A DNA stretch of 64,000 nucleotides, from contig JAHIQI010000066.1 in NCBI GenBank assembly GCA_018902755.1, positions 17,417 to 81,416 on the forward strand, read 5' to 3'. This DNA is from Pseudomonadota bacterium (lineage in GTDB: Bacteria; Desulfobacterota; Desulfarculia; Desulfarculales; Desulfarculaceae). The notes under the pieces were generated by a model that was given only the letters and a program-made list of their open reading frames with translations, was not told the origin of the DNA and did no database searches. The translations under genes and the position numbers were made by a program. Below, piece by piece: positions 11,589-61,705 of this stretch; the stretch's first letter is position 1; each line of letters opens with the position of its first letter.

Positions 11589-11628
11589 TTGTTGGGTTTC
11601 GCTTCGCTCTACCCAACCTACGCTATTG
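11589..11628 (+). repeat. family-A intergenic hairpin repeat, copy A1
   Basis: TTGTTGGGTTTCGCTTCGCTCTACCCAACCTACGCTATTG; stem GTTGGGT/ACCCAAC. One of 10 copies in the window. Confidence 0.9.
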
Positions 11629-23389: not shown

Positions 23390-23429
23390 TTGTTGGGTTT
23401 CGCTTCGCTCTACCCAACCTACGCTATTG
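23390..23429 (+). repeat. family-A repeat, copy A2
   Basis: Identical 40-mer to A1. Confidence 0.9.
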
Positions 23430-27879: not shown

Positions 27880-28845
27880 ATGGCTTTCTGTAGCCGCAAA
27901 ACCTGGCACTTATGGTTGGGGGCGGGATTTTTCGCCCTGGCCGTGGGCGGGTCCCTGGCCGGAGTGGGCTGGATACGGGTCTGGTTCTACCAGTTTGCCT
28001 GGTGGGGCTACATTTGTATGGCTGATGCATGTATCCAGCGTATCCAGGGCAACAGCCTGTTGGTGGACCGGCGTAGGGTGTTTTGGACCATGTGTCTGGT
28101 GAGCGCCGCCTTCTGGTTCGGCTGGGAGATGGTGAACCTTCGCCTGCAAAACTGGTTCTACCTCGGGGTGCCCCCCCAGATTGAGCAACGCTGGCCGGGA
28201 TCCTTCATCGCCTTCGCCACGGTCCTGCCGGGAATCTTCCTCACCTACGAGCTTATCGGCCTCACGGGGCTGTCCTGGGGGCGCGGGGTGCGGCCCATCC
28301 CCGTCACCCGGGCCTGGTATCCTTGGTTTTTGGGTGTTGGCGTAATAATGGCAATTCTTCCTATTACTTACCCGAAGGTGTTTTTCCCTATGGTTTGGGG
28401 TTCCGTGGTGTTTCTGCTGGAGCCCATCAACCACCGCCTGGGCGCCAGGAGCCTTATGCGCTCCTGGGAGCGGGGCGATCTGTCGCCTTTCGTGCGCCTG
28501 CTGCTGGCCGGGCTGCTGTGCGGGATTTTCTGGGAATCCTGGAACTGGTTGGCCGACGCCCGCTGGACCTATAATATTCCCTATCTGAACGAGCCCAAGA
28601 TTTTCGCCATGCCCCTGGCCGGGTACCTGGGGTTTCCGCCCTTCGCGGTGGAGTGCTACGTGTTCTACGCCACGGTCAGCCTCATTTGGGGCGGGCGGGG
28701 CTGGGAAGCGGATGACTACCGGGCTTCGGTGCGCCCCATGGCCCCGGCCTGGCTGCGTTGGCTCCTGGGCCTTGGCGCGGTGGCCTACGGCCTGTGGATG
28801 TGCCACATGATCGACCTCTATTTAGTAAAAGGATGGCTCTCCTGA
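27880..28845 (+). CDS. polytopic integral membrane protein, function unknown
   Basis: About 8 hydrophobic segments, Trp-rich; good RBS (AAGGAAGG). I recognise no family. Confidence 0.6.
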   Translation: MAFCSRKTWHLWLGAGFFALAVGGSLAGVGWIRVWFYQFAWWGYICMADACIQRIQGNSLLVDRRRVFWTMCLVSAAFWFGWEMVNLRLQNWFYLGVPPQIEQRWPGSFIAFATVLPGIFLTYELIGLTGLSWGRGVRPIPVTRAWYPWFLGVGVIMAILPITYPKVFFPMVWGSVVFLLEPINHRLGARSLMRSWERGDLSPFVRLLLAGLLCGIFWESWNWLADARWTYNIPYLNEPKIFAMPLAGYLGFPPFAVECYVFYATVSLIWGGRGWEADDYRASVRPMAPAWLRWLLGLGAVAYGLWMCHMIDLYLVKGWLS

Positions 28846-30152
28846 GCAAAACCTACTATCTGCTCAACCTGGGCTGCGCCAAGAACCTGGTGGAGGGCGA
28901 ACACCTGGCCGGGCTGCTGTTGTCCGACGGCTGGTCGGCGGTGGAGCGACCCGAGGAGGCCGAGCTGCTCCTTTTGAACACCTGCGGCTTCATCCAGCCC
29001 GCGGTGGAGGAGGCCATCGAGGCCGCCCTGGAGCTGGCCGACGGCAAGACCGAGGCCCAGCGCCTGGTGGTGGCCGGATGCCTGGTGGGGCGCTACGGCA
29101 AAAAGCTGGCGACCGACCTGCCCGAGGCCGATCTCCTGCTGGCCCCCGGCGAGGCCTCCAATCTGCTCAAGCACCTGGCCGCGCCGCCAACCGGACGCTT
29201 GGCCATCAGCCCGCCGCGCTCGTTGTTCGGCGGGTCCGACCCCCGCGCGCTCAGCACCGGGCCTGGCTGGGCCTATTTACGCGTCTCCGACGGCTGCGCC
29301 CAGTCCTGCGCCTTTTGCACCATCCCCCATATCCGGGGCCCCCTGCGCTCACGCCCCCTGGACGATGTCCTGGCCGAGGCCGCCAACCTGGCCGAGTTGG
29401 GGGTGCGCGAGCTGAACCTGGTGGCCCAGGACCTGACCTCCTACGGCCGCGACCTGGGCGGGCCGGGCCTGGCCGAACTGCTCAGCGCCCTATCTACTAT
29501 AGAAGGCGTTCAGTGGCTTCGGCCTCTGTACCTGCACCCGGACCTCATCGACGACAAGCTCATCGCCGCCATCCTGGCCAACCCCAAGGCGGCCCCGTAC
29601 TTCGACCTGCCCTTGCAGCACGTGGCCGACCCGGTGCTGAAGGCCATGGGCCGCAAGCGCAGCGGCTCCGAGCTGAAGGCCCTGGTCCGGGGCATCCGCC
29701 GGGCCGCGCCCCAGGCGGTGTTGCGCACCACCCTGTTGGTGGGCCACCCCGGCGAGGGCCAGGCCGAGTTCGCCGCCCTCAAGGAGTTCGTGGCCGAGAT
29801 GGAGTTCGACCGCCTGGGGGTGTTCCCCTACAGCCCCGAGGCGGGCACCCGCAGCGCCCGCCTGCCCGCGCCGCCGCCCCAGGTGGCCGCCAAGAGGGCC
29901 GCCCAGATCATGGAGCTGCAACGGCGCATCAGCCGCCGCCGCCTGGCCCCCCTGGAGGGGAAAACCCTGCCGGTGCTGGTCTTGGGCCCCCACCCGGACA
30001 GCGATCTGGTGTGGGCCGGGCGCACCCAGGCCCAGGCCCCGGAGGTGGACGGCCTGGTGATCATCACCGAGGGCTCGGCCGCGCCGGGCAGCATCGCCCC
30101 CTGCCGCATCACCGCCACCCACGACTACGACCTGGAAGGGGTCCTGGTCTAG
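28833..30152 (+). CDS. rimO: radical-SAM methylthiotransferase, RimO-like (ribosomal protein S12 Asp88)
   Basis: UPF0004 N-domain (LGCAKNLVEGEHLAG...NTCGF), radical SAM CAQSCAFCTIP, C-terminal TRAM. Start set at ATG 28833 (MALLSKTYYLL); the track ORF is over-extended. RimO versus MiaB cannot be fully separated by eye. Confidence 0.75.
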   Translation: MALLSKTYYLLNLGCAKNLVEGEHLAGLLLSDGWSAVERPEEAELLLLNTCGFIQPAVEEAIEAALELADGKTEAQRLVVAGCLVGRYGKKLATDLPEADLLLAPGEASNLLKHLAAPPTGRLAISPPRSLFGGSDPRALSTGPGWAYLRVSDGCAQSCAFCTIPHIRGPLRSRPLDDVLAEAANLAELGVRELNLVAQDLTSYGRDLGGPGLAELLSALSTIEGVQWLRPLYLHPDLIDDKLIAAILANPKAAPYFDLPLQHVADPVLKAMGRKRSGSELKALVRGIRRAAPQAVLRTTLLVGHPGEGQAEFAALKEFVAEMEFDRLGVFPYSPEAGTRSARLPAPPPQVAAKRAAQIMELQRRISRRRLAPLEGKTLPVLVLGPHPDSDLVWAGRTQAQAPEVDGLVIITEGSAAPGSIAPCRITATHDYDLEGVLV

Positions 30153-30697: not shown

Positions 30698-30737
30698 CAA
30701 TAGCGTAGGTTGGGTAGAGCGAAGCGAAACCCAACAA
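30698..30737 (-). repeat. family-A repeat, copy A3 (inverted)
   Basis: CAATAGCGTAGGTTGGGTAGAGCGAAGCGAAACCCAACAA is the exact reverse complement of A1/A2. Confidence 0.9.
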
Positions 30738-30833: not shown

Positions 30834-31343
30834 CTATTGATCGGGCTTGCCCAGGGACTGGATGCGCCTGCCCAGCAGGGCCAGGCGCTGGGCCAACAGC
30901 GGCTCCGGGTCCAGCACGTTCAGATGTCCCCATCGGGCCATGGCCAAGACCAGGCCCTCGGGCTCGCCCACCAGGAAGGGGAACACCCCGCGCCCGCTGG
31001 GCTCGGCCGGGGCCTGGGCCATCATCTCCCGTCGGCGGCTGGGGCTGCTCAGCCAGGGGCGCACCTCGTCCTCGCCGTCCAAGGGAGCCAGGGCCAACAG
31101 CTCGATCACCTGCTCCTGATCCAGGCCGTCCAGGATGGCCAGGGCCACCGGCTGCTCGGGGCGGGTGACCAGGTACAGGCGCAGGCGTTTAGCCCGCTCT
31201 AGTTTCTCCAGCTCGGCAGTGAAGTGGGCCGGGGTGTAGGCCACCTCCGCCGGGCGGAACAGGCTGCGCCAGCGCCGCGCGAAATCGGCGATGGCCCCCA
31301 GCTCGGCCTGGGGGTCGAAGCTAACCTTGCTCTTTAAGCGCAT
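30834..31343 (-). CDS. hypothetical protein (~169 aa)
   Basis: Coding-like composition. Start taken at the internal Met (MRLKSKVSFD), which overlaps the upstream PP-loop gene by 23 nt. No family recognised. Confidence 0.45.
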   Translation of the reverse strand: MRLKSKVSFDPQAELGAIADFARRWRSLFRPAEVAYTPAHFTAELEKLERAKRLRLYLVTRPEQPVALAILDGLDQEQVIELLALAPLDGEDEVRPWLSSPSRRREMMAQAPAEPSGRGVFPFLVGEPEGLVLAMARWGHLNVLDPEPLLAQRLALLGRRIQSLGKPDQ

Positions 31344-32286
31344 CTCGCTTGGTGCTTTCGCGCTGGCGGGTGTTTTCCAAAAACCGGCAGATGGTGCACA
31401 CCTCGGCAAAGCTGGGCATGCCGCACACCGAGCAGCGCTCCTCCATCTCCGGCTTGGCGGGGGGAGCGCCCTTGTCCTCCAGGTAGCCCTGGTAGAAGTT
31501 TATGGTGGTGCCTGGCATGCGCTCTTCCAGCAGGCGCACCGCCTCGGTGTAATAGGGCAGGGTGGCTCCCTTGGAGCGGGGGCAGGTGCCCTTGGCCACG
31601 GACCAGCCCTGGGACTTGGCGTAGGACTTCAGCTCCGCCCCGCGCAGGCGGCACAGCGGCTTTATCTTTTTGGCGAAGGCCCCCGGCGCGCCGGGCAGGG
31701 TGGGCCACTGGCTGTCCAGGTAGCGCTGGTGGCGGCGCACCAGGTTGCCCAGCAGGCGGGCGGCCTCGTCGTCCAGGTGGTGGCCGGTGGCCAAAACCTC
31801 GAAGCCCAGGTCCAGGCAGGCCTTGTTCAGGTAGTAGCGCTTGAGGGTGCCGCACACCGAGCAGAAGGAGCGCTTGTTGGCCCAGGCTATCTGCTGCACC
31901 CCGAACCCGGCCAGCTCGGCCATGTTCATTAGATGCAGCGGGGCCCCCAGGCGCTGGGCCATGGCCTGGCTGGCCGCCAGGGAGGCCTCGCCGAACTTGC
32001 CGTCGCCCAGCTCCAGGGCCAGGTGCAGCCCCTCGACCTGGTAGCCCAGATCCAAAAGCACCTGCCACAGGGCCAGGGAGTCCTTGCCGCCGCTCACCGC
32101 CACCAGGACCTTTTGCCCGGGTTCGAGCATGTCGTACTGCTTGATGGCCTTCTCGGTCTGGCGGCGCACGAAGATGCCCAGGCACTTGTCGCAGAAGCGG
32201 GCGTTGTGGCTGGGCAGGCGGTGCTGGGCCGGCTGGCGGCAGCGGGAGCATTTCATGCCGTCGATGTTCATGCAGCGGGTCTCCAA
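31321..32286 (-). CDS. PP-loop ATP-pyrophosphatase, TtuA/TtcA-like tRNA 2-thiolation enzyme with flanking Cys clusters
   Basis: SGGKDS PP-loop. N-terminal CxxC...CxxC (KCSRCRQPA...FCDKC). Central CSVCG. C-terminal CSVCGMPSFAEVCTIC. Confidence 0.75.
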   Translation of the reverse strand: METRCMNIDGMKCSRCRQPAQHRLPSHNARFCDKCLGIFVRRQTEKAIKQYDMLEPGQKVLVAVSGGKDSLALWQVLLDLGYQVEGLHLALELGDGKFGEASLAASQAMAQRLGAPLHLMNMAELAGFGVQQIAWANKRSFCSVCGTLKRYYLNKACLDLGFEVLATGHHLDDEAARLLGNLVRRHQRYLDSQWPTLPGAPGAFAKKIKPLCRLRGAELKSYAKSQGWSVAKGTCPRSKGATLPYYTEAVRLLEERMPGTTINFYQGYLEDKGAPPAKPEMEERCSVCGMPSFAEVCTICRFLENTRQRESTKRDALKEQG

Positions 32287-33598: not shown

Positions 33599-33945
33599 AC
33601 CCTGCGAGCCACCGGCTGGGTGCGCACCGTCTCGGGCATCCAATCTCTTATAAGCGTCTACCTGCTGGCCCTGGCCATCCTCACCTACTTCGGCAGGCCG
33701 TTTGGATAGGCGGCGAACCTTCTCGTCACCCCCCAGTGGCACGATGCCCGCCTCTATAGTATAGTTGCTTTGCTTGACAAGAGGCCGCCCGGCGTCACCC
33801 GGCGGCGGCCAATTTTTTCTCAAAAATTCTCTTGACAAGCGCCCCTCCTCTACTTCACACTCTCAGTTTACGTGAAGGTAGCCCTTCCCCCCTGCGGGGA
33901 GGGGTGTGCTTTTATTGTTTTCATACTGTTTTGCTTGGTGAAACG

Positions 33946-35022
33946 ATGTCCAGTTCCGCTAAAAACGCCCACGAGGCACTGGCCCAACACCTGGATCGCT
34001 CCCCCTTGGGCGCGCCCCAGGGGCCCGAGCTCATGGCGATTTTGCGCGAACTGTTCACCGGCGAGGAAGCGGCGGTGGCCTCGGTCCTGCCCTTCAAGCC
34101 GGTTCGGGCCAAGGCCCTGGCCGAGACCCTGGAGCGCCCGGCCGATGAGATCGCCCCGGTGCTGGAGTCCCTGGCCGCCAAGGGCCTGGCCTATCGCCGC
34201 AGCACCAAGGCGGGCGACTACTACAGCCTGCTGCAGATGGTGCCGGGCATGGCAGAGGCCCAGTTCTGGGCCATGGCCCCGGGCGAGGCCAAGCTCAGGA
34301 TGGCCCAGCTGTTCGAGGACTACTACGAGCCCGGCGTGGGCAAGGCCTTTGCCGAAGCCCCCACGCCCTACTCCCGGGTCATCCCGGTGGGCCGGTCCAT
34401 TGAAAACAGCCAGGAGATTCTGCCCTACGACAAGGCGGAGGAGCTTATCCACCAGCACGAGCACCTGGCCCTGATCAATTGCTACTGCCGCGAGCAGGCC
34501 CACCTGCTGGGCAAGGGCTGCGACGCCCCCCTGGACGTGTGCATGATCTTCGGCTCCTTTGCCGAGTTCGCGGTGGACCAGGGCTGGGCCAAGCCCATGG
34601 ACGAGGCGGGCATGCTCCTGGCCCTAAGGCGCGCCGAGGATGCCGGTCTGGTGCACGTGGTGGACAACGTAGCGGAAAACGTGAACTTTTTGTGCAACTG
34701 CTGCGGGTGCTGTTGCATGTTCCTACAGACCATCACCCGCATGAACCACCTCGGGGCGGTGAGCCAGGCGGCTTACTTCGCCTCGGTGGACCCGGAGCTG
34801 TGCACCGCCTGCGGCGAGTGCGCCGACACCTGCCAGGTGGCGGCGGTCCGGGTGGATGACGACTGCGCCGTTTTTGACCAGGAGCTTTGTTTAGGCTGCG
34901 GCCAATGCGCCACGGTCTGCCCCAGCGAGGCGATAAGGATGATCCGCCGAGAGGCCCGGCCGGTGCCGGCCCACCAAGGCGAACTTCAGGCCAGATTGGC
35001 CGACGCCCGCGGGGTGAAATAG
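33946..35022 (+). CDS. 4Fe-4S dicluster domain protein (ferredoxin-type, Cys-rich)
   Basis: CTACGECADTC and CLGCGQCATVCP ferredoxin motifs, plus NCYCREQAH and CNCCGCCC clusters. Start set at ATG 33946. Confidence 0.75.
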   Translation: MSSSAKNAHEALAQHLDRSPLGAPQGPELMAILRELFTGEEAAVASVLPFKPVRAKALAETLERPADEIAPVLESLAAKGLAYRRSTKAGDYYSLLQMVPGMAEAQFWAMAPGEAKLRMAQLFEDYYEPGVGKAFAEAPTPYSRVIPVGRSIENSQEILPYDKAEELIHQHEHLALINCYCREQAHLLGKGCDAPLDVCMIFGSFAEFAVDQGWAKPMDEAGMLLALRRAEDAGLVHVVDNVAENVNFLCNCCGCCCMFLQTITRMNHLGAVSQAAYFASVDPELCTACGECADTCQVAAVRVDDDCAVFDQELCLGCGQCATVCPSEAIRMIRREARPVPAHQGELQARLADARGVK

Positions 35023-35195: not shown

Positions 35196-36278
35196 ATGGC
35201 CGACAGCCGTAATTTCAAGGGTTCGGACTTCAGCCTGGACACGCCCGTCACCTACTTCAAAGAGGTGGAGGGGCGCGATCTGCTGACTCCCGAGCGGGAG
35301 CTGGCGCTGGGCAAGACCATCCAAGACGGCCGCGACGAAATTTTGATGAAAGCCTTGTCGATCATCAAGAGCGACAAGGACGCCTGCGACAACTGCGTGC
35401 GCATCGAGGCCTGGCTGGAAGACAGCCACAAGTCTCCCCTTTCGGTGGAAGACGTGATGGCCGAGACCTTCGAACTGCTCAAGCGCGCCGCAGCCAAGCG
35501 CAAGCCCTCCAAGAAGCTTAGCAAGACCTTGGAGGAGATCGACAGCGCCCGCTTGCAGGTCGAGGTCGCGGTGCAGGAGATGGTGGAAGCCAACCTGCGC
35601 CTGGCCGTGTCCATAGCCAAGAAGTACACCTTCCGGGGCCTGAGCTTCGCCGACCTGATCCAGGAAGGCAACATCGGCCTGATGAAGGCGGTGAACCGCT
35701 ACGACTACAAGACCGGTTACCGCTTCAGCACCTTTGCCTCTTGGTGGATTCGCCAGACCATCAGCCGGGCCATCTACGACCAGGCCCGCACCATCCGCAT
35801 CCCCATCCACCTCCTGGAGCTCCGCTCCAAGTACTTTAGGGTGTACTACGGTCTGCTCAAAGAGCTGGGACGCGAGCCCCTGCCCAAGGAAGTGGCCGAA
35901 AAGGTGGGCATCGACGAGAGCAAGGTCAAGGAGATCGTCAACCTGACCCTGGACTCCACCAGCCTGGAGACCCCGGTGGGCGAGGACGGCGACGAGCTGG
36001 GCGACTTCATCGAGAACAAGGAGGCCGAGTGCCCCTTTGAGAAGGTGGGCGAAGGCGAGATGATGGTCCACCTGGGCGAGGCCCTGGAGTCCCTGGACGC
36101 CCGCGAAAAGCGCATCCTGCAGATGCGTTTCGGCCTGGGCGACGAGGACGAGCACACCCTGGAGCAGGTGGGTCAGGTCTTCGGCCTTTCCCGCGAGCGG
36201 GTGCGCCAGATCGAGAAGAAGGCCCTGCAGCGCCTCAGGCATCCCCAATGGCGGGCGGTGCTGGAGGACCACGTCTAG
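35196..36278 (+). CDS. RNA polymerase sigma factor, sigma-70 family (group 1/2-like, no region 1.1), 360 aa
   Basis: Region 2 (IQEGNIGLMKAVNRYDYKTGYRFSTFASWWIRQTISRAI), region 3 and region 4.2 (TLEQVGQVFGLSRERVRQIEKKALQRLR). Confidence 0.9.
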   Translation: MADSRNFKGSDFSLDTPVTYFKEVEGRDLLTPERELALGKTIQDGRDEILMKALSIIKSDKDACDNCVRIEAWLEDSHKSPLSVEDVMAETFELLKRAAAKRKPSKKLSKTLEEIDSARLQVEVAVQEMVEANLRLAVSIAKKYTFRGLSFADLIQEGNIGLMKAVNRYDYKTGYRFSTFASWWIRQTISRAIYDQARTIRIPIHLLELRSKYFRVYYGLLKELGREPLPKEVAEKVGIDESKVKEIVNLTLDSTSLETPVGEDGDELGDFIENKEAECPFEKVGEGEMMVHLGEALESLDAREKRILQMRFGLGDEDEHTLEQVGQVFGLSRERVRQIEKKALQRLRHPQWRAVLEDHV

Positions 36279-37353: not shown

Positions 37354-39681
37354 ATGACTCTTCGCACGGTGAACAACATCCTGGAGCTGGTGGGCGGCAC
37401 CCCCCTGGTGCGCATAAACCGGCTCAACCAAAACCCCGGCGTGACAGTGTACGCCAAGCTGGAGTTCATGAACCCCGGCGGCTCGGTGAAGGACCGCCCG
37501 GCGCTGAACATGATCGAGCAGGCCGAGAAGCGCGGCGAGCTGACCAAGGGCAAGATCCTGTTGGAGGCCACCAGCGGCAACACCGGCATCGGACTGGCCA
37601 TGGCCTGCGCGGTCAAGGGCTACAAGATGCTCTTCACCATGTCCGAGTCCGCCTCCCAGGAGCGCCGCAAGATCCTTCGGGCCTACGGGGCCGACATCCT
37701 GCTCACCCCGGCCCACATGTCCACCGACGGGGCCATCGAGGAGGCCTACCGCCTGGCCCGCGAGGAGCCGGAGCGCTATTTCCTGGTGGACCAGTTCAAC
37801 AACGAGGACAACTGGATGGCCCACGCCCTGGAGGGCTCCACGGCCGACGAGATATATGAGGCCACCGAGGGCAAGGTGAACCTGGTGGTGGCCACCCTGG
37901 GCACCTCGGGCACGGTCATGGGCCTCACGCGGCGCCTGCACCAACTGGACCCCAAGGTCAAGGTGGTGGCGGTGGAGCCCTATCAGGGGCACAAGATCCA
38001 GGGGCTCAAGAACATGAAGGAATCCTACGCGCCGGGCATCTTCAGCCCCGGCGAGGTGGACATCCTGGCCAACGTGGACGATGACAGCGCCTACGAGATC
38101 GCCCGCCGCCTGGCCCGCGAGGAGGGCATCTTCGTGGGCATGAGCGCCGGGGCGGCCATGAAGGTGGCCCTGGACCAGGCGGCCACCCTGCCCGAGGGCT
38201 CGGTGGTGGTGGCGCTCATGGCCGACGGCGGCGAGCGCTACCTGTCCACCTCCCTGTTCAGCAGCGAAAAGGTGCCGGTGCCGCTGAGGTTCTACAACAC
38301 CCTCAGCCGCGAGGTTGAGGACCTCACCCCGGTGCGCCCCGGCCAGGTGGGCATCTACGCCTGCGGCCCCTCGCTGGACGGAGCGCCGGACCTGGGCCTG
38401 TGCCGCCGCATGGTCTTCGCCGACCTGGTGCGCCGCTACCTGGAGTTCCGGGGCTTCGAGGTCAAGCTGATCATCAACATCGCCGACGTGGACGACCGCA
38501 CGGTGAACCAGTGCCTGGCCGAGGGGGCCGACTGGAAGCAGTTCACCGCCCGCTGGGAAAAGGTGTTCTTCGAGGACATGGCCACGCTCAACGTGCTGCC
38601 CGCCCTGGACTACCCCAAGGCCAGCGAGCACATCAACCAGATGGTGGACTCGGCCCGGGAGCTGTTGGCCAAGGACATGGCCTACGTCAAGCTCAGGAGC
38701 GTGTACTTCAACATCAGCCACTTCCCGGACTACGGCAAGCTCTCGGGCGTGGACCTGAACGCCACCCAGAGCGACAAGCACACCGACTACGACTATTACG
38801 AGAAGGAGAACCCCAGGGACTTCACCATCTTCAAGCGGGCCACCCTGGCCGACCTGAAGGCGGGCATCTACTGGTCCACCCCCTGGGGCAACGTGCGCCC
38901 CGGCTGGCACGTGGAATGCGCCACCATGTCCACCGAGCACCTGGGCCAGCCCTTTGACCTGCACCTGGCCTCCACCGACCTCGTCTTCCCCCACGGAGAG
39001 AACGAGATCGCCGTGGCCCAATGCCTCAGCGGCAAGCCCCTGGCCAACATGTGGCTGCACTCGGACGTGGTTATGGTGGACGGCAAGAAGGCCAGCCGGG
39101 TGGCGGGCAACGACGTGACCCTTCGGGAGATCCTGGGCCAGGGCTACTCCCCGGCCACGGTGCGCTACTGGCTCCTCGGCCAGCACTACCGGCGGCCCAT
39201 CACCTTCGAGCGCGAGCAGCTGGACCAGGCGGCCAAGACCGTGGAGCGCCTGAACGACTTCGTGGAGCGCCTGCGCTTTATGAGCCCCGGCGAGCCCTCA
39301 CCGGACCTGGACCAAATCCTCTACGAGGCCAAAAGCGGCATCCAGGAGGCCATGGACAACGACCTGGGCGTGCCCAAGGCCATGGGCCAGCTCTTCGCCA
39401 TGGTGCGCCGCATCAACCGCCTGATGAACCAGGGGCAGATGGACGCCGCCCAGGTGGAGCAGGTGCTGGCTTTCGTGGAGCGCACCAACCGGGTGCTGGG
39501 GGTGATCGACCTGGAGCCCGGCGAGAGCGACGCGAATATCGAGGCCCTGGTCAAAAAGCGCGACGCCGCCCGCGCCGGGGGCGACTTCGCCTTGGCCGAC
39601 CGGCTGCGCGAGGAGCTGGCCGCCAAGGGCGTGCAGCTCATCGACACCCCTTCCGGCACCCGCTGGAACAAGGTTTCTTAA
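37354..39681 (+). CDS. fusion protein: PLP-dependent cysteine synthase (CysK/CysM-type) :: cysteinyl-tRNA synthetase homologue with degenerate HIGH/KMSKS
   Basis: One open frame. N-terminal half has EFMNPGGSVKDR, ATSGNTGIGLA and GMSAGAA. From about 38281 onward it reads LRFYNTLSREVEDL...GIYACGP...WHVECA...DLVFPHGENEIAVAQ...VRYWLLGQHYRRP...GDFALADRLREELAAKGVQLIDTPSGTRW. Start set at ATG 37354 (RBS AGGAAA); the track ORF begins at 37249. Confidence 0.85.
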   Translation: MTLRTVNNILELVGGTPLVRINRLNQNPGVTVYAKLEFMNPGGSVKDRPALNMIEQAEKRGELTKGKILLEATSGNTGIGLAMACAVKGYKMLFTMSESASQERRKILRAYGADILLTPAHMSTDGAIEEAYRLAREEPERYFLVDQFNNEDNWMAHALEGSTADEIYEATEGKVNLVVATLGTSGTVMGLTRRLHQLDPKVKVVAVEPYQGHKIQGLKNMKESYAPGIFSPGEVDILANVDDDSAYEIARRLAREEGIFVGMSAGAAMKVALDQAATLPEGSVVVALMADGGERYLSTSLFSSEKVPVPLRFYNTLSREVEDLTPVRPGQVGIYACGPSLDGAPDLGLCRRMVFADLVRRYLEFRGFEVKLIINIADVDDRTVNQCLAEGADWKQFTARWEKVFFEDMATLNVLPALDYPKASEHINQMVDSARELLAKDMAYVKLRSVYFNISHFPDYGKLSGVDLNATQSDKHTDYDYYEKENPRDFTIFKRATLADLKAGIYWSTPWGNVRPGWHVECATMSTEHLGQPFDLHLASTDLVFPHGENEIAVAQCLSGKPLANMWLHSDVVMVDGKKASRVAGNDVTLREILGQGYSPATVRYWLLGQHYRRPITFEREQLDQAAKTVERLNDFVERLRFMSPGEPSPDLDQILYEAKSGIQEAMDNDLGVPKAMGQLFAMVRRINRLMNQGQMDAAQVEQVLAFVERTNRVLGVIDLEPGESDANIEALVKKRDAARAGGDFALADRLREELAAKGVQLIDTPSGTRWNKVS

Positions 39682-39865: not shown

Positions 39866-39904
39866 CATCGCGTAGGTTGGGTAGAGCGAAGCGAAACCCA
39901 ACAA
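39866..39904 (-). repeat. family-A repeat, copy A5 (inverted)
   Basis: CATCGCGTAGGTTGGGTAGAGCGAAGCGAAACCCAACAA. Confidence 0.9.
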
Positions 39905-40022: not shown

Positions 40023-40415
40023 ATGGCCATAAAGCGCGACAAGCATGCCTGGCTGCGGGCCGTGGAAAGCCTGCCCGCCTATCCCGTGGTGCTCATGCCG
40101 CTCAGCGAGGGCGGCTGGGAGGCGGTGTTCCCCAACCTGGCCCGGGTTCGCGCCTGGGGCCCGGACAAGGACACCTGCCGGGCCAACGCCGCCGAGGCGC
40201 TGACCTTCGAGCTGGGCCAGCTCATCGTGGCGGGCGACGCCGCGCCGAGCCCCTCGGACCCGGCGCGGCTCATCCCCGACGACGAGGAGCCTCGCGGCAC
40301 CGAGCTGGTCATGCTGGACCCTCTGCGCTCGGTGCTCAAGAAGCGCCTGGGCCTGGAGAAGCGCGAAAAGGGCGGGGCCATGGCCGCCACCCTGGGCAGG
40401 CTGGGACGCAACTGA
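40023..40415 (+). CDS. HicB-like (UPF0150/antitoxin-fold) protein, no adjacent HicA
   Basis: YPVVLMPLSEGGWEAVFPNLARVRAWGPDKDTCRANAAEALTFELGQLIVAGDAAPSPS follows the HicB N-domain pattern. Strong RBS AGGAGAAG before ATG 40023. Confidence 0.5.
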   Translation: MAIKRDKHAWLRAVESLPAYPVVLMPLSEGGWEAVFPNLARVRAWGPDKDTCRANAAEALTFELGQLIVAGDAAPSPSDPARLIPDDEEPRGTELVMLDPLRSVLKKRLGLEKREKGGAMAATLGRLGRN

Positions 40416-40944: not shown

Positions 40945-40984
40945 TTGTTGGGTTTCGCTTCGCTCTACCCAACCTACGCCAATC
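40945..40984 (+). repeat. family-A repeat, copy A6
   Basis: TTGTTGGGTTTCGCTTCGCTCTACCCAACCTACGCCAATC. Forms a perfect 35-bp inverted repeat with A5. Confidence 0.9.
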
Positions 40985-58275: not shown

Positions 58276-58315
58276 TTGTTGGGTTTCGCTTCGCTCTACC
58301 CAACCTACGCTATCG
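58276..58315 (+). repeat. family-A repeat, copy A8
   Basis: TTGTTGGGTTTCGCTTCGCTCTACCCAACCTACGCTATCG, 34 nt from A7 in inverted orientation. Confidence 0.9.
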
Positions 58316-61669: not shown

Positions 61670-61705
61670 GGCGTAGGTTGGGTAGAGCGAAGCGAAACCC
61701 AACAA
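61670..61705 (-). repeat. family-A repeat, copy A10 (inverted)
   Basis: GGCGTAGGTTGGGTAGAGCGAAGCGAAACCCAACAA. Confidence 0.9.

Follow-up and report, generated by a model that had tools for sequence, protein, structure and literature searches.

A CysM-type cysteine synthase fused to a CysRS homologue with an altered ATP site: a candidate pseudo-synthetase partner in Desulfarculaceae and other anaerobes

What is the role of a cysteinyl-tRNA synthetase (CysRS) homologue that lacks the HIGH motif and is joined, in one polypeptide, to the enzyme that makes cysteine? This question is raised by a gene at 37354..39681(+) of a 64,000-nt stretch of contig JAHIQI010000066.1 (Desulfarculaceae), referred to here as the window; coordinates are positions of the whole window, and residue numbers are those of the 775-aa product of the gene unless E. 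coli numbering is named. The gene encodes a CysM-type cysteine synthase followed by a CysRS-like putative pseudo-synthetase. The reading tentatively favoured here is that the CysRS-like half no longer aminoacylates tRNA and acts as a partner of the synthase to which it is attached.

The frame of the gene is free of stops over 775 aa and ends in a stop codon. The longest possible open reading frame (ORF) begins at TTG 37249; the start at ATG 37354 is backed by the N-termini of more than 100 homologues (M-[TS]-x-R-K-V-x-N-I-L-E-L), and AGGA is located 9-12 nt 5' of it. An earlier note on this DNA, made from the sequence alone, had described one continuous frame of ~775 codons in which a complete pyridoxal 5'-phosphate (PLP)-dependent cysteine synthase passes into a CysRS homologue. 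This description holds, as do the domain boundaries that it had drawn. The PALP domain (PF00291) was identified at 37381..38220(+) (residues 10-289; Pfam 5e-69, 233 bits against a cut-off of 35) and reaches to ~residue 303. It is followed by a short inter-domain linker, 8-10 residues long and annotated as SEKVPVP (38263..38283(+), residues 304-310), of which S304, E305, P308 and P310 are nearly invariant. Residues 311-775 form a full-length CysRS homologue, consisting of a catalytic domain (Rossmann plus connective peptide (CP), PF01406 tRNA-synt_1e; 38326..39234(+), residues 325-627; Pfam 5e-85, 286 bits against 27), a DALR_2 helical domain (PF09190; 39343..39504(+), residues 664-717; Pfam 2e-10) and a C-terminal CysRS anticodon-binding domain reading ...GDFALADRLREEL...DTPSGTRW... 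(Pfam CysS_C; 39529..39678(+), residues 726-775). The CysS_C match itself, at residues 726-765, scores 22.7 bits, slightly below the 23-bit Pfam cut-off, and the NCBIfam cysS model TIGR00435 scores 370.3 bits, above its cut-off of 340.

All PLP and substrate motifs are present in the synthase half: none of the 201 fusions examined lacks the lysine of SVKDR, the TSGNTG/SSGNTA Asn loop, the GTxGT phosphate loop or GMSxGA. The Schiff-base lysine is K46 (codon 37489..37491(+)), likewise invariant (201/201). Among the NCBIfam cysteine synthase models, only that of the cysKM subfamily (TIGR01136) is passed, and marginally so (344.9 bits against 344.15), the equivalog cut-offs of cysM (332 against 394) and cysK (307 against 351) being missed. 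This half aligns end to end with CysM of Salmonella (2jc3) and of E. coli (2bhs), with which it shares the PLP lysine, the Asn and phosphate loops, the Ser and a short loop at a place where CysK has a longer insertion; by its sequence it is assigned as a CysM-type O-acetylserine sulfhydrylase. It differs from these enzymes in carrying a CysRS-like C-terminal extension of 470 residues, as well as in falling below the cysM and cysK equivalog cut-offs.

The register of the CysRS-like half was fixed by pairwise HMMER alignment to the solved CysRS structures 8qhp (E 8e-98) and 1li5 of E. coli (E 6e-84). A family alignment (A1) of 35 sequences was used, together with a wider comparison of 119 family members against 84 canonical CysRS representatives. 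The Zn ligands C28, C209, H234 and E238 of E. coli correspond to C337 (38362..38364(+)), C522 in WHVEC (38917..38919(+)) and H547 and E551 of H547-G-E-N-E551 (38992..39006(+)); these four residues, W205 and H206 (E. coli numbering) are retained in 35/35 sequences, and H235, next to H234, is Gly in all of them. The helical domain is present, as is the anticodon-binding domain with its canonical invariants, R423, D436, R439, G446, D451 and G455 (E. coli numbering) all being retained in the family. The earlier note was therefore right in its claim that the Zn/cysteine ligands, the anticodon-binding region and the C-terminal tail had been kept. It was also right that HIGH had been lost and reads DLGL: HIGH (37-40) aligns with D346-L-G-L349 (38389-38400) within D346-L-G-L-C-R-R352 (38389..38409(+)), which does not match the H-x-G-H/N signature that serves ATP binding and transition-state stabilisation. 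The four positions are D in 34, L in 35, G in 32 and L in 33 of the 35 sequences; H40 is replaced by L or V throughout (35/35), while H37 is replaced by D in 34/35 and at a frequency of 0.99 among the 119 members. DLGL is followed by C-R-R, both Arg residues (R42/R43 positions) occurring in 35/35. KMSKS (266-270) aligns with K579-A-S-R-V583 (39088..39102(+)), so that the first Lys (K266, 35/35) and the Ser remain, whereas Arg invariably takes the place of the second, catalytic Lys of the canonical motif (K269, 35/35). The note had called this motif lost and read it as KKASR; a change was indeed found, yet the register is one residue off (KASRV) and the motif is altered rather than lost.

Comparison of the 84 canonical representatives with the 119 members shows how these changes are distributed. 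At least 90% conservation among canonical CysRS was found in 78 columns; the family keeps 58 of them, 3 are intermediate and 17 are replaced (T31S, V32L, Y33D, H37D, T68G/A, K73R, T115S, W184F, G201A, G226A, G227S, H235G, Q241I, M267V, K269R, S270A and F342W). The 17 replaced positions group on the HIGH and KMSKS loops and in the adenylate pocket, and most of the new residues are themselves fixed. The ATP/adenylate site has thus been rebuilt: HIGH to DLGL, the GGG stretch to xAS, HH to HG, T68 to A/G and the second Lys of KMSKS to Arg. The ratio of nonsynonymous to synonymous substitution rates (dN/dS, Nei-Gojobori), calculated against orthologues of 95% (L006) and 89% (L007) identity, is 0.12-0.22 for the whole gene. 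It is lowest in the synthase half (0.06-0.12) and reaches 0.15-0.27 in the catalytic part of the CysRS-like half and 0.16-0.39 in its helical/anticodon part; every part of the gene is under purifying selection. As the replacements are fixed in 119 members and the gene is under such selection, they reflect remodelling of the nucleotide site, not its decay.

Relatives of the fusion were sought among GTDB loci, by a search seeded with an archaeal fusion and by using the CysRS-like half as query in an exhaustive HMMER search of 1.84 billion cluster representatives; motif states were surveyed in 80 GTDB loci and a further 119 homologues. The bacterial fusions all belong to an 'RR' group with x-L/I-G-x-C-R-R. 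Their HIGH position reads HLGN, HLGV, HLGP, HIGQ, HIGL, HIGE, TLGL, DLGL, GLGL, DLAL, QVAT, DIAN, NIAQ and others. None of them has Lys at the second lysine position of KMSKS, where R, Y, W or D is found unless the loop is deleted; a deletion is seen in L063, from the 1.68-Mb complete chromosome of a metagenome-assembled genome (MAG; CP070660). The HIGE group has Ser in place of C209 and the QVAT group Val in place of E238, and the terminal GTRW hairpin is absent from the HIGE and NIAQ groups. The DLGL family of the window is among the better-preserved branches, with the Zn site, the K...R pair and the tRNA tail all kept. The motifs of aminoacylation are dispensable across the clade. Many bacterial members cannot be functional CysRS and all nevertheless keep the synthase, so the partnership has a role other than aminoacylation. 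The suggestion of the earlier note that cysteine would not be activated in the canonical way is strengthened by the 17 clustered replacements and by the sister lineages in which KMSKS is deleted or a Zn ligand is lost; the annotation 'cysteine--tRNA ligase' is probably wrong for many members.

Fully canonical motifs, H[IV]GN-F-R-S and KMSKS, were found only in fusions of DPANN archaea (Nanoarchaeota, Nanobdellota and Woesearchaeota; P0139 and P0295-P0311). These CysK-CysRS fusions (P0139 and about 18 relatives) have the same domain order and length (760-780 aa) as the window protein, and the CysRS halves are about 35% identical; unlike the window protein, which belongs to the bacterial 'RR' clade with altered motifs, they keep H[IV]GN/KMSKS and, judged by these motifs, are probably genuine bifunctional enzymes, against which the bacterial forms have a natural control. 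The contigs of two 'RR' CysRS-like proteins that seemed to stand alone, P0277 (a cluster of 58 members) and P0129, were examined. In both, a PALP gene comes first, its product sharing 58% (P0277) or 56% (P0129) identity with residues 4-304 of the window protein, and the gap between the PALP stop and the CysRS-like ATG is 4 nt for P0277 and 2 nt for P0129, the break falling exactly at the domain junction. Split units of this type, with the CysRS-like gene 2-4 nt after the PALP gene, are located at L088 4209-7293, L089 7108-9455 and L090 3842-6189, and their CysRS-like genes carry HIGL or HIGT with KMSRS or KMARS. The pairing is obligate, either as a fusion (>200 proteins) or as adjacent genes (the three split loci). 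That the two proteins are fused in some organisms and encoded by adjacent genes in others (Rosetta-stone evidence) indicates that they work together. At L088, a ThiF/MoeB-type E1 gene lies directly 3' of the split unit, hinting at a link to a sulfur carrier in that lineage only. A different fusion was seen in P0155 (711 aa, on a 167-kb ENA contig): its N-terminal part, judged by eye from the sequence, is a hexapeptide domain like that of serine acetyltransferase, and the remainder is a canonical CysRS in which both HIGH and KMSKS are intact. Cysteine biosynthesis is here tied to CysRS in a second way.

The window fusion is 100% identical to P0001, 'MAG Desulfarculus sp.'. The best 120 matches in a collection of 5.8 billion proteins are all near-full-length relatives (723-814 aa, 61-100% identity), and a scan of one genome per GTDB species located relatives at 470 loci. 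The best 80 of these 470 were examined closely; they are full-length fusions, barring five partial matches (at a contig end or, in L065, breaking off after ~residue 544). The fusion occurs in the isolates Desulfarculus baarsii DSM 2075 (complete genome CP002085), Desulfocarbo indianensis (LBMP01), Dethiosulfatarculus sandiegensis (AZAC01) and strain Dcd-1, as well as in many MAGs of Pirellulales/Thermoguttaceae (Pirellulales contigs CAWJUD01 and CAWGAJ01 among the carriers), Desulfobacterales and other Thermodesulfobacteriota, and metagenomes yielded hundreds of clusters of the fusion family. In Desulfarculales the gene is core, and it is widespread among Desulfobacterales and anaerobic Pirellulales, the DLGL family (119 members) spanning Desulfarculales, Pirellulales and other anaerobes. 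Copies of Desulfarculales and Pirellulales are 61-65% identical and some MAGs hold 2-3 copies, a pattern more in keeping with an accessory gene that spreads than with a housekeeping synthetase passed on by vertical descent. The MAGs with two or three distinct copies include, in Desulfarculaceae, JAZDIQ01 (L017/L021/L023), JAMOVV01 (L026/L029) and JANQFN01 (L014/L065, the L065 copy looking truncated); these could be paralogues or strain mixtures. Several bins carry unexpected labels, namely Methanococcoides sp. (L081), Rickettsiales (L031, L039 and L056) and Myxococcales (L034, L057 and L058). In a comparison of motifs only, the motif states of L081 equal those of L080, a Deltaproteobacteria MAG (DIGL type), and bin contamination or mislabelling is a more likely source of the odd labels than a true host range.

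A structure of the window protein was predicted with AlphaFold2 from a 35-sequence alignment (mean predicted local distance difference test (pLDDT) 81, predicted template modelling score (pTM) 0.60). Both halves are confidently modelled, including the DLGL loop (pLDDT ~92). By Foldseek, the template modelling (TM) score is 0.91 against both CysRS 8qhp and CysM 2bhs and 0.80 against 1u0b, the E. coli CysRS-tRNA complex; the matches are to single domains, and no solved structure of a fusion is among them.

Taken together, targeted remodelling of the ATP site, purifying selection, clade-wide loss of motifs, the existence of split genes and the behaviour of an accessory gene support, at somewhat short of even confidence and in part by analogy, a non-aminoacylating, CysRS-derived ligand-binding partner that would regulate or serve the attached synthase, in the manner of HisZ and GCN2. 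Sensing or regulation of cysteine is preferred over other roles, channelling and sensing, both raised by the earlier note, being viable. Under this reading, the CysRS-like half would no longer form Cys-AMP or Cys-tRNA; it would read free cysteine and probably uncharged tRNA(Cys) and so tune or gate cysteine synthesis, housekeeping synthesis of Cys-tRNA falling to a separate canonical CysRS. Arg352 and Asp346, both new, could plausibly stand in for ATP as partners of the carboxylate and the amino group of bound cysteine. From its conserved residues, the window protein probably binds tRNA. A more specific form of the proposal, possible but doubtful, is a bacterial counterpart of GCN2 and HisZ, in which an ATP-free cysteine site (Zn thiolate, Arg352 and Asp346) and an anticodon domain binding uncharged tRNA(Cys) would switch the synthase on and off; cysteine supply would then be wired directly to the charging status of tRNA(Cys). 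In a more radical variant, Cys-tRNA(Cys) would be the substrate of an ATP-independent reaction.

Several observations weigh against a non-aminoacylating partner. K579, R582, R351/R352, H224, D229 and the V-V-M stretch before the KMSKS loop are invariant, so a phosphate/adenosine-binding site may persist. The NCBIfam cysS equivalog cut-off is passed and annotation pipelines call the protein a cysteine--tRNA ligase. An anticodon-binding domain would be needless in a pure sensor of cysteine, and for every member of the clade the regulatory role is proposed by inference. No defined contact between the domains occurs in the AlphaFold2 model (pTM 0.60), in which residues 294-308 of the linker region have a pLDDT below 50; the inter-domain geometry is accordingly undefined and the model makes no statement about channelling distance. 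Finally, a separate canonical cysS was not demonstrated in the DLGL-carrying genomes, the search covering the window and the flanks of the loci. In the window, neither a Pfam scan of the 30 largest ORFs, out of about 52 called, nor tblastn queries with a serine acetyltransferase domain and E. coli CysRS detected a second cysS, sepS or cysE, and neither a second CysRS-like gene nor a serine acetyltransferase was detected in about 1 Mb of flanks around about 90 related loci.

Other explanations of the locus must be weighed against the same evidence. That adjacent cysK/cysM and cysS genes were joined by a sequencing or assembly error at the junction has a negligible probability: two-gene forms of the unit do exist in other organisms, yet the identical in-frame junction with its conserved linker recurs intact in >200 independent assemblies, including isolate genomes, which refutes an artefact. 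A true bifunctional enzyme is an unlikely, though weightier, alternative. Here the CysRS half would charge tRNA(Cys) through a non-canonical ATP site formed by Asp346 (via Mg2+), Arg351/Arg352 and Lys579/Arg582, with cysteine received straight from the fused synthase, and it may be the sole CysRS of Desulfarculales. Such an enzyme is consistent with the passing of the TIGR00435 cut-off, with the invariance of the Zn site, the tRNA-binding domain, K266 and the adenine/ribose contacts (H224 and D229), and with the conservative nature of the change from Lys to Arg. The gene is also core in all cultured Desulfarculales and lies among housekeeping genes with a very high G+C content at third codon positions (GC3). 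The DPANN fusions, with their canonical motifs, show that a CysK-CysRS built in this way can be functional. Some tolerance in the HIGH and KMSKS motifs is seen in TrpRS (TIGN) and GluRS (HVGG/KLSKR). Both HIGH histidines are gone from the window protein, however, with an acidic residue at the position of the ATP phosphates and with T68, the GGG stretch and H235 changed; close relatives in the clade are clearly without catalytic elements, and the cross-phylum identity of 61-65% and the presence of several copies in some MAGs would be unusual for a housekeeping enzyme that is the only CysRS of its host. Aminoacylation by the CysRS-like half is considered unlikely. Were the protein still to charge tRNA, it would be the first class I synthetase active without either HIGH histidine, which would be equally notable.

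The retention of the cysteine pocket and the anticodon domain in a protein without HIGH is what an enzyme using aminoacyl-tRNA would need, and a new ATP-independent, tRNA-dependent catalyst, which would take Cys-tRNA(Cys) as donor or, in a SepCysS-like route, present a tRNA(Cys)-bound precursor to the PLP domain, could be envisaged, but is held to be quite unlikely. Cyclodipeptide synthases use aminoacyl-tRNA as an activated donor. They are class-I-derived enzymes without ATP motifs (PMC2922099) and offer a precedent, and the fixed new residues D346 and R352 suggest new chemistry or a new ligand over neutral loss. Against such a catalyst, no biosynthetic-cluster neighbours, SepRS or acceptor-generating genes were found in about 90 loci, the partnership persists in sister lineages without the tRNA tail or a Zn ligand, and the published bacterial hosts of SepRS belong to other phyla (PMC5424206, PMC8762117). 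Erosion of different elements from lineage to lineage resembles release from functional constraint, and the only universal feature is the set of synthase motifs. Both points agree with a structural relic, on which the synthase would depend for folding, oligomerisation or stability and which would have no ligand role. Such a relic is improbable, as the DLGL-family replacements are invariant and all 119 members, under purifying selection, retain the Zn ligands and the anticodon invariants, for which a scaffold alone would have no use. Least credit among the functional alternatives is given to an enzyme of sulfur trafficking, which would make or handle cysteine persulfide (CARS 'CPERS'-like) or receive sulfur from a thiocarboxylated carrier, the source used by CysM of M. 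tuberculosis. Synthases of the CysM type can use sulfur nucleophiles of larger size. The ThiF-like E1 gene of L088 and the genes for TtuA-like and MiaB-like sulfur insertion near the fusion in Desulfarculales point in this direction, but ThiF occurs at one of about 90 loci and the proximity of TtuA and MiaB is order-level synteny that is not conserved in Planctomycetes.

A number of known identities were also considered for the protein. A MshC-like ligase, raised by the earlier note, is contradicted by the TIGR03447 score (203.5 bits against a cut-off of 485.1), by the absence of HIGH and by the presence of an anticodon domain. A route of the SepRS/SepCysS type, also raised there, does not agree with a PLP domain of the fold-type II CysM kind, SepCysS being of fold-type I, or with the absence of SepRS context in about 90 loci; genes for SepCysS and the class II enzyme SepRS, which usually share an operon, were not detected in the window (30 largest ORFs, Pfam), nor do they recur beside the fusion. 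The CARS cysteine persulfide synthase model was rejected: KIIK reads RTVN and the second Lys of KMSKS is Arg, the lysines of both motifs having been proposed to bind PLP.

The window is a housekeeping region that contains genes for ATP synthase, mreB, PBP2, yidC, jag, mnmE, a GidA-family gene, gyrA and gyrB. The upstream neighbour of the fusion gene is on the opposite strand and the gene looks monocistronic; no convincing promoter or terminator consensus was identified around it, and no tRNA gene or Rfam family was found in the window. All-against-all clustering of neighbour ORFs revealed no gene conserved between phyla beside the fusion, from which it follows that the CysM/CysRS-like unit is self-contained. 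Synteny is limited to the order Desulfarculales and involves a sigma-70 factor, a small 130-aa gene, and Smr, TtuA-like and MiaB-like genes. In the window, a MiaB/RimO-like radical-SAM methylthiotransferase is encoded at 28758-30152(+), a conserved 184-aa gene and a TtuA-like PP-loop tRNA thiolase at 30855-31343(-) and 31321-32286(-), and a 4Fe-4S protein and an RpoD-like sigma factor at 33832-35022(+) and 35196-36278(+). The D. baarsii fusion is likewise surrounded by the MiaB-like, 184-aa, TtuA-like and sigma genes in another order, the 4Fe-4S protein excepted. This shared neighbourhood may represent synteny at the level of the order, or a loose connection with the sulfur chemistry of tRNA. 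The small gene directly downstream of the fusion (about 126-130 aa; 40032-40409(+)) has no Pfam match; it is kept in position at 15 Desulfarculales loci and is 52% identical in D. baarsii. In Ca. Anammoximicrobium (L003/L004), a YbaK-type tRNA_edit gene (PF04073; 13474-13953) is located ~1.1 kb 3' of the fusion; it was seen in no other lineage and may be a coincidence. A 28-nt intergenic repeat, GGTTGGGTAGAGCGAAGCGAAACCCAAC, an imperfect palindrome resembling repetitive extragenic palindromic (REP) elements, occurs seven times in the window with zero mismatches (chance expectation 0). The exact copies are at 11591-11618(-), 23392-23419(-), 30708-30735(+), 39875-39902(+), 40947-40974(-), 58278-58305(-) and 61676-61703(+), one of them 194 nt 3' of the stop of the fusion gene.

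To our knowledge, few pseudo-synthetases have been re-used as sensors or regulators (HisZ, the HisRS-like domain of GCN2 and SLIMP), none of them for cysteine, and we know of none that keeps both an amino-acid pocket and an anticodon domain while attached to the enzyme making that amino acid. Neither a fusion of CysK or CysM with CysRS nor a CysRS paralogue without HIGH was found described in full-text searches of the literature, and the CysRS paralogues listed in a 2022 review of aminoacyl-tRNA synthetase (aaRS) duplications are MshC and CysRS* only (PMC9437257). Misannotation of the family matters for genome-completeness markers and metabolic models. The clade also provides a natural series, from canonical DPANN fusions to bacterial forms without HIGH, KMSKS, a Zn ligand or the tRNA tail, in which the way that a class I synthetase loses catalysis and acquires another role could be studied.

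Compared with canonical CysRS (1li5/1u0b and 8qhp), the window protein is alike in its full-length homology, Zn ligands, W205/H206, CP, helical and anticodon domains and 58 of 78 invariants, and differs in having DLGL, replacements at T68, G226, G227 and H235, Arg as the second Lys of KMSKS, a second Arg after R42 and a fused PLP enzyme. MshC and CysRS* are likewise CysRS paralogues with non-standard roles. In contrast to the window protein, MshC has retained HIGH together with its ATP chemistry, has no anticodon domain and is not fused to a synthase; CysRS*, the selC*-specific form of Desulfobacterales, also lacks the anticodon domain, is linked to selB*/selC* and is unfused to a synthase. 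HisZ makes HisG, the ATP phosphoribosyltransferase, sensitive to histidine. It is a HisRS paralogue and the regulatory partner of HisG (PMC9437257), and resembles the window protein, by analogy and not homology, in the loss of aminoacylation (here predicted), the retention of the amino-acid site and the tie to a biosynthetic enzyme of the same amino acid. It differs in belonging to another aaRS class and fold, in having no anticodon-binding domain and in being a separate subunit, and regulation is presumed for the window protein. The HisRS-like domain of GCN2 is catalytically dead and binds uncharged tRNA as a starvation signal. It offers a parallel as a dead synthetase-like domain fused to an enzyme, whereas its context is that of a eukaryotic kinase and the binding of tRNA by the window protein is predicted from conserved residues. 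An aaRS-derived pseudo-enzyme partnered with a biosynthetic enzyme is thus of a kind already known, of which the present family is a widespread and mis-annotated candidate.

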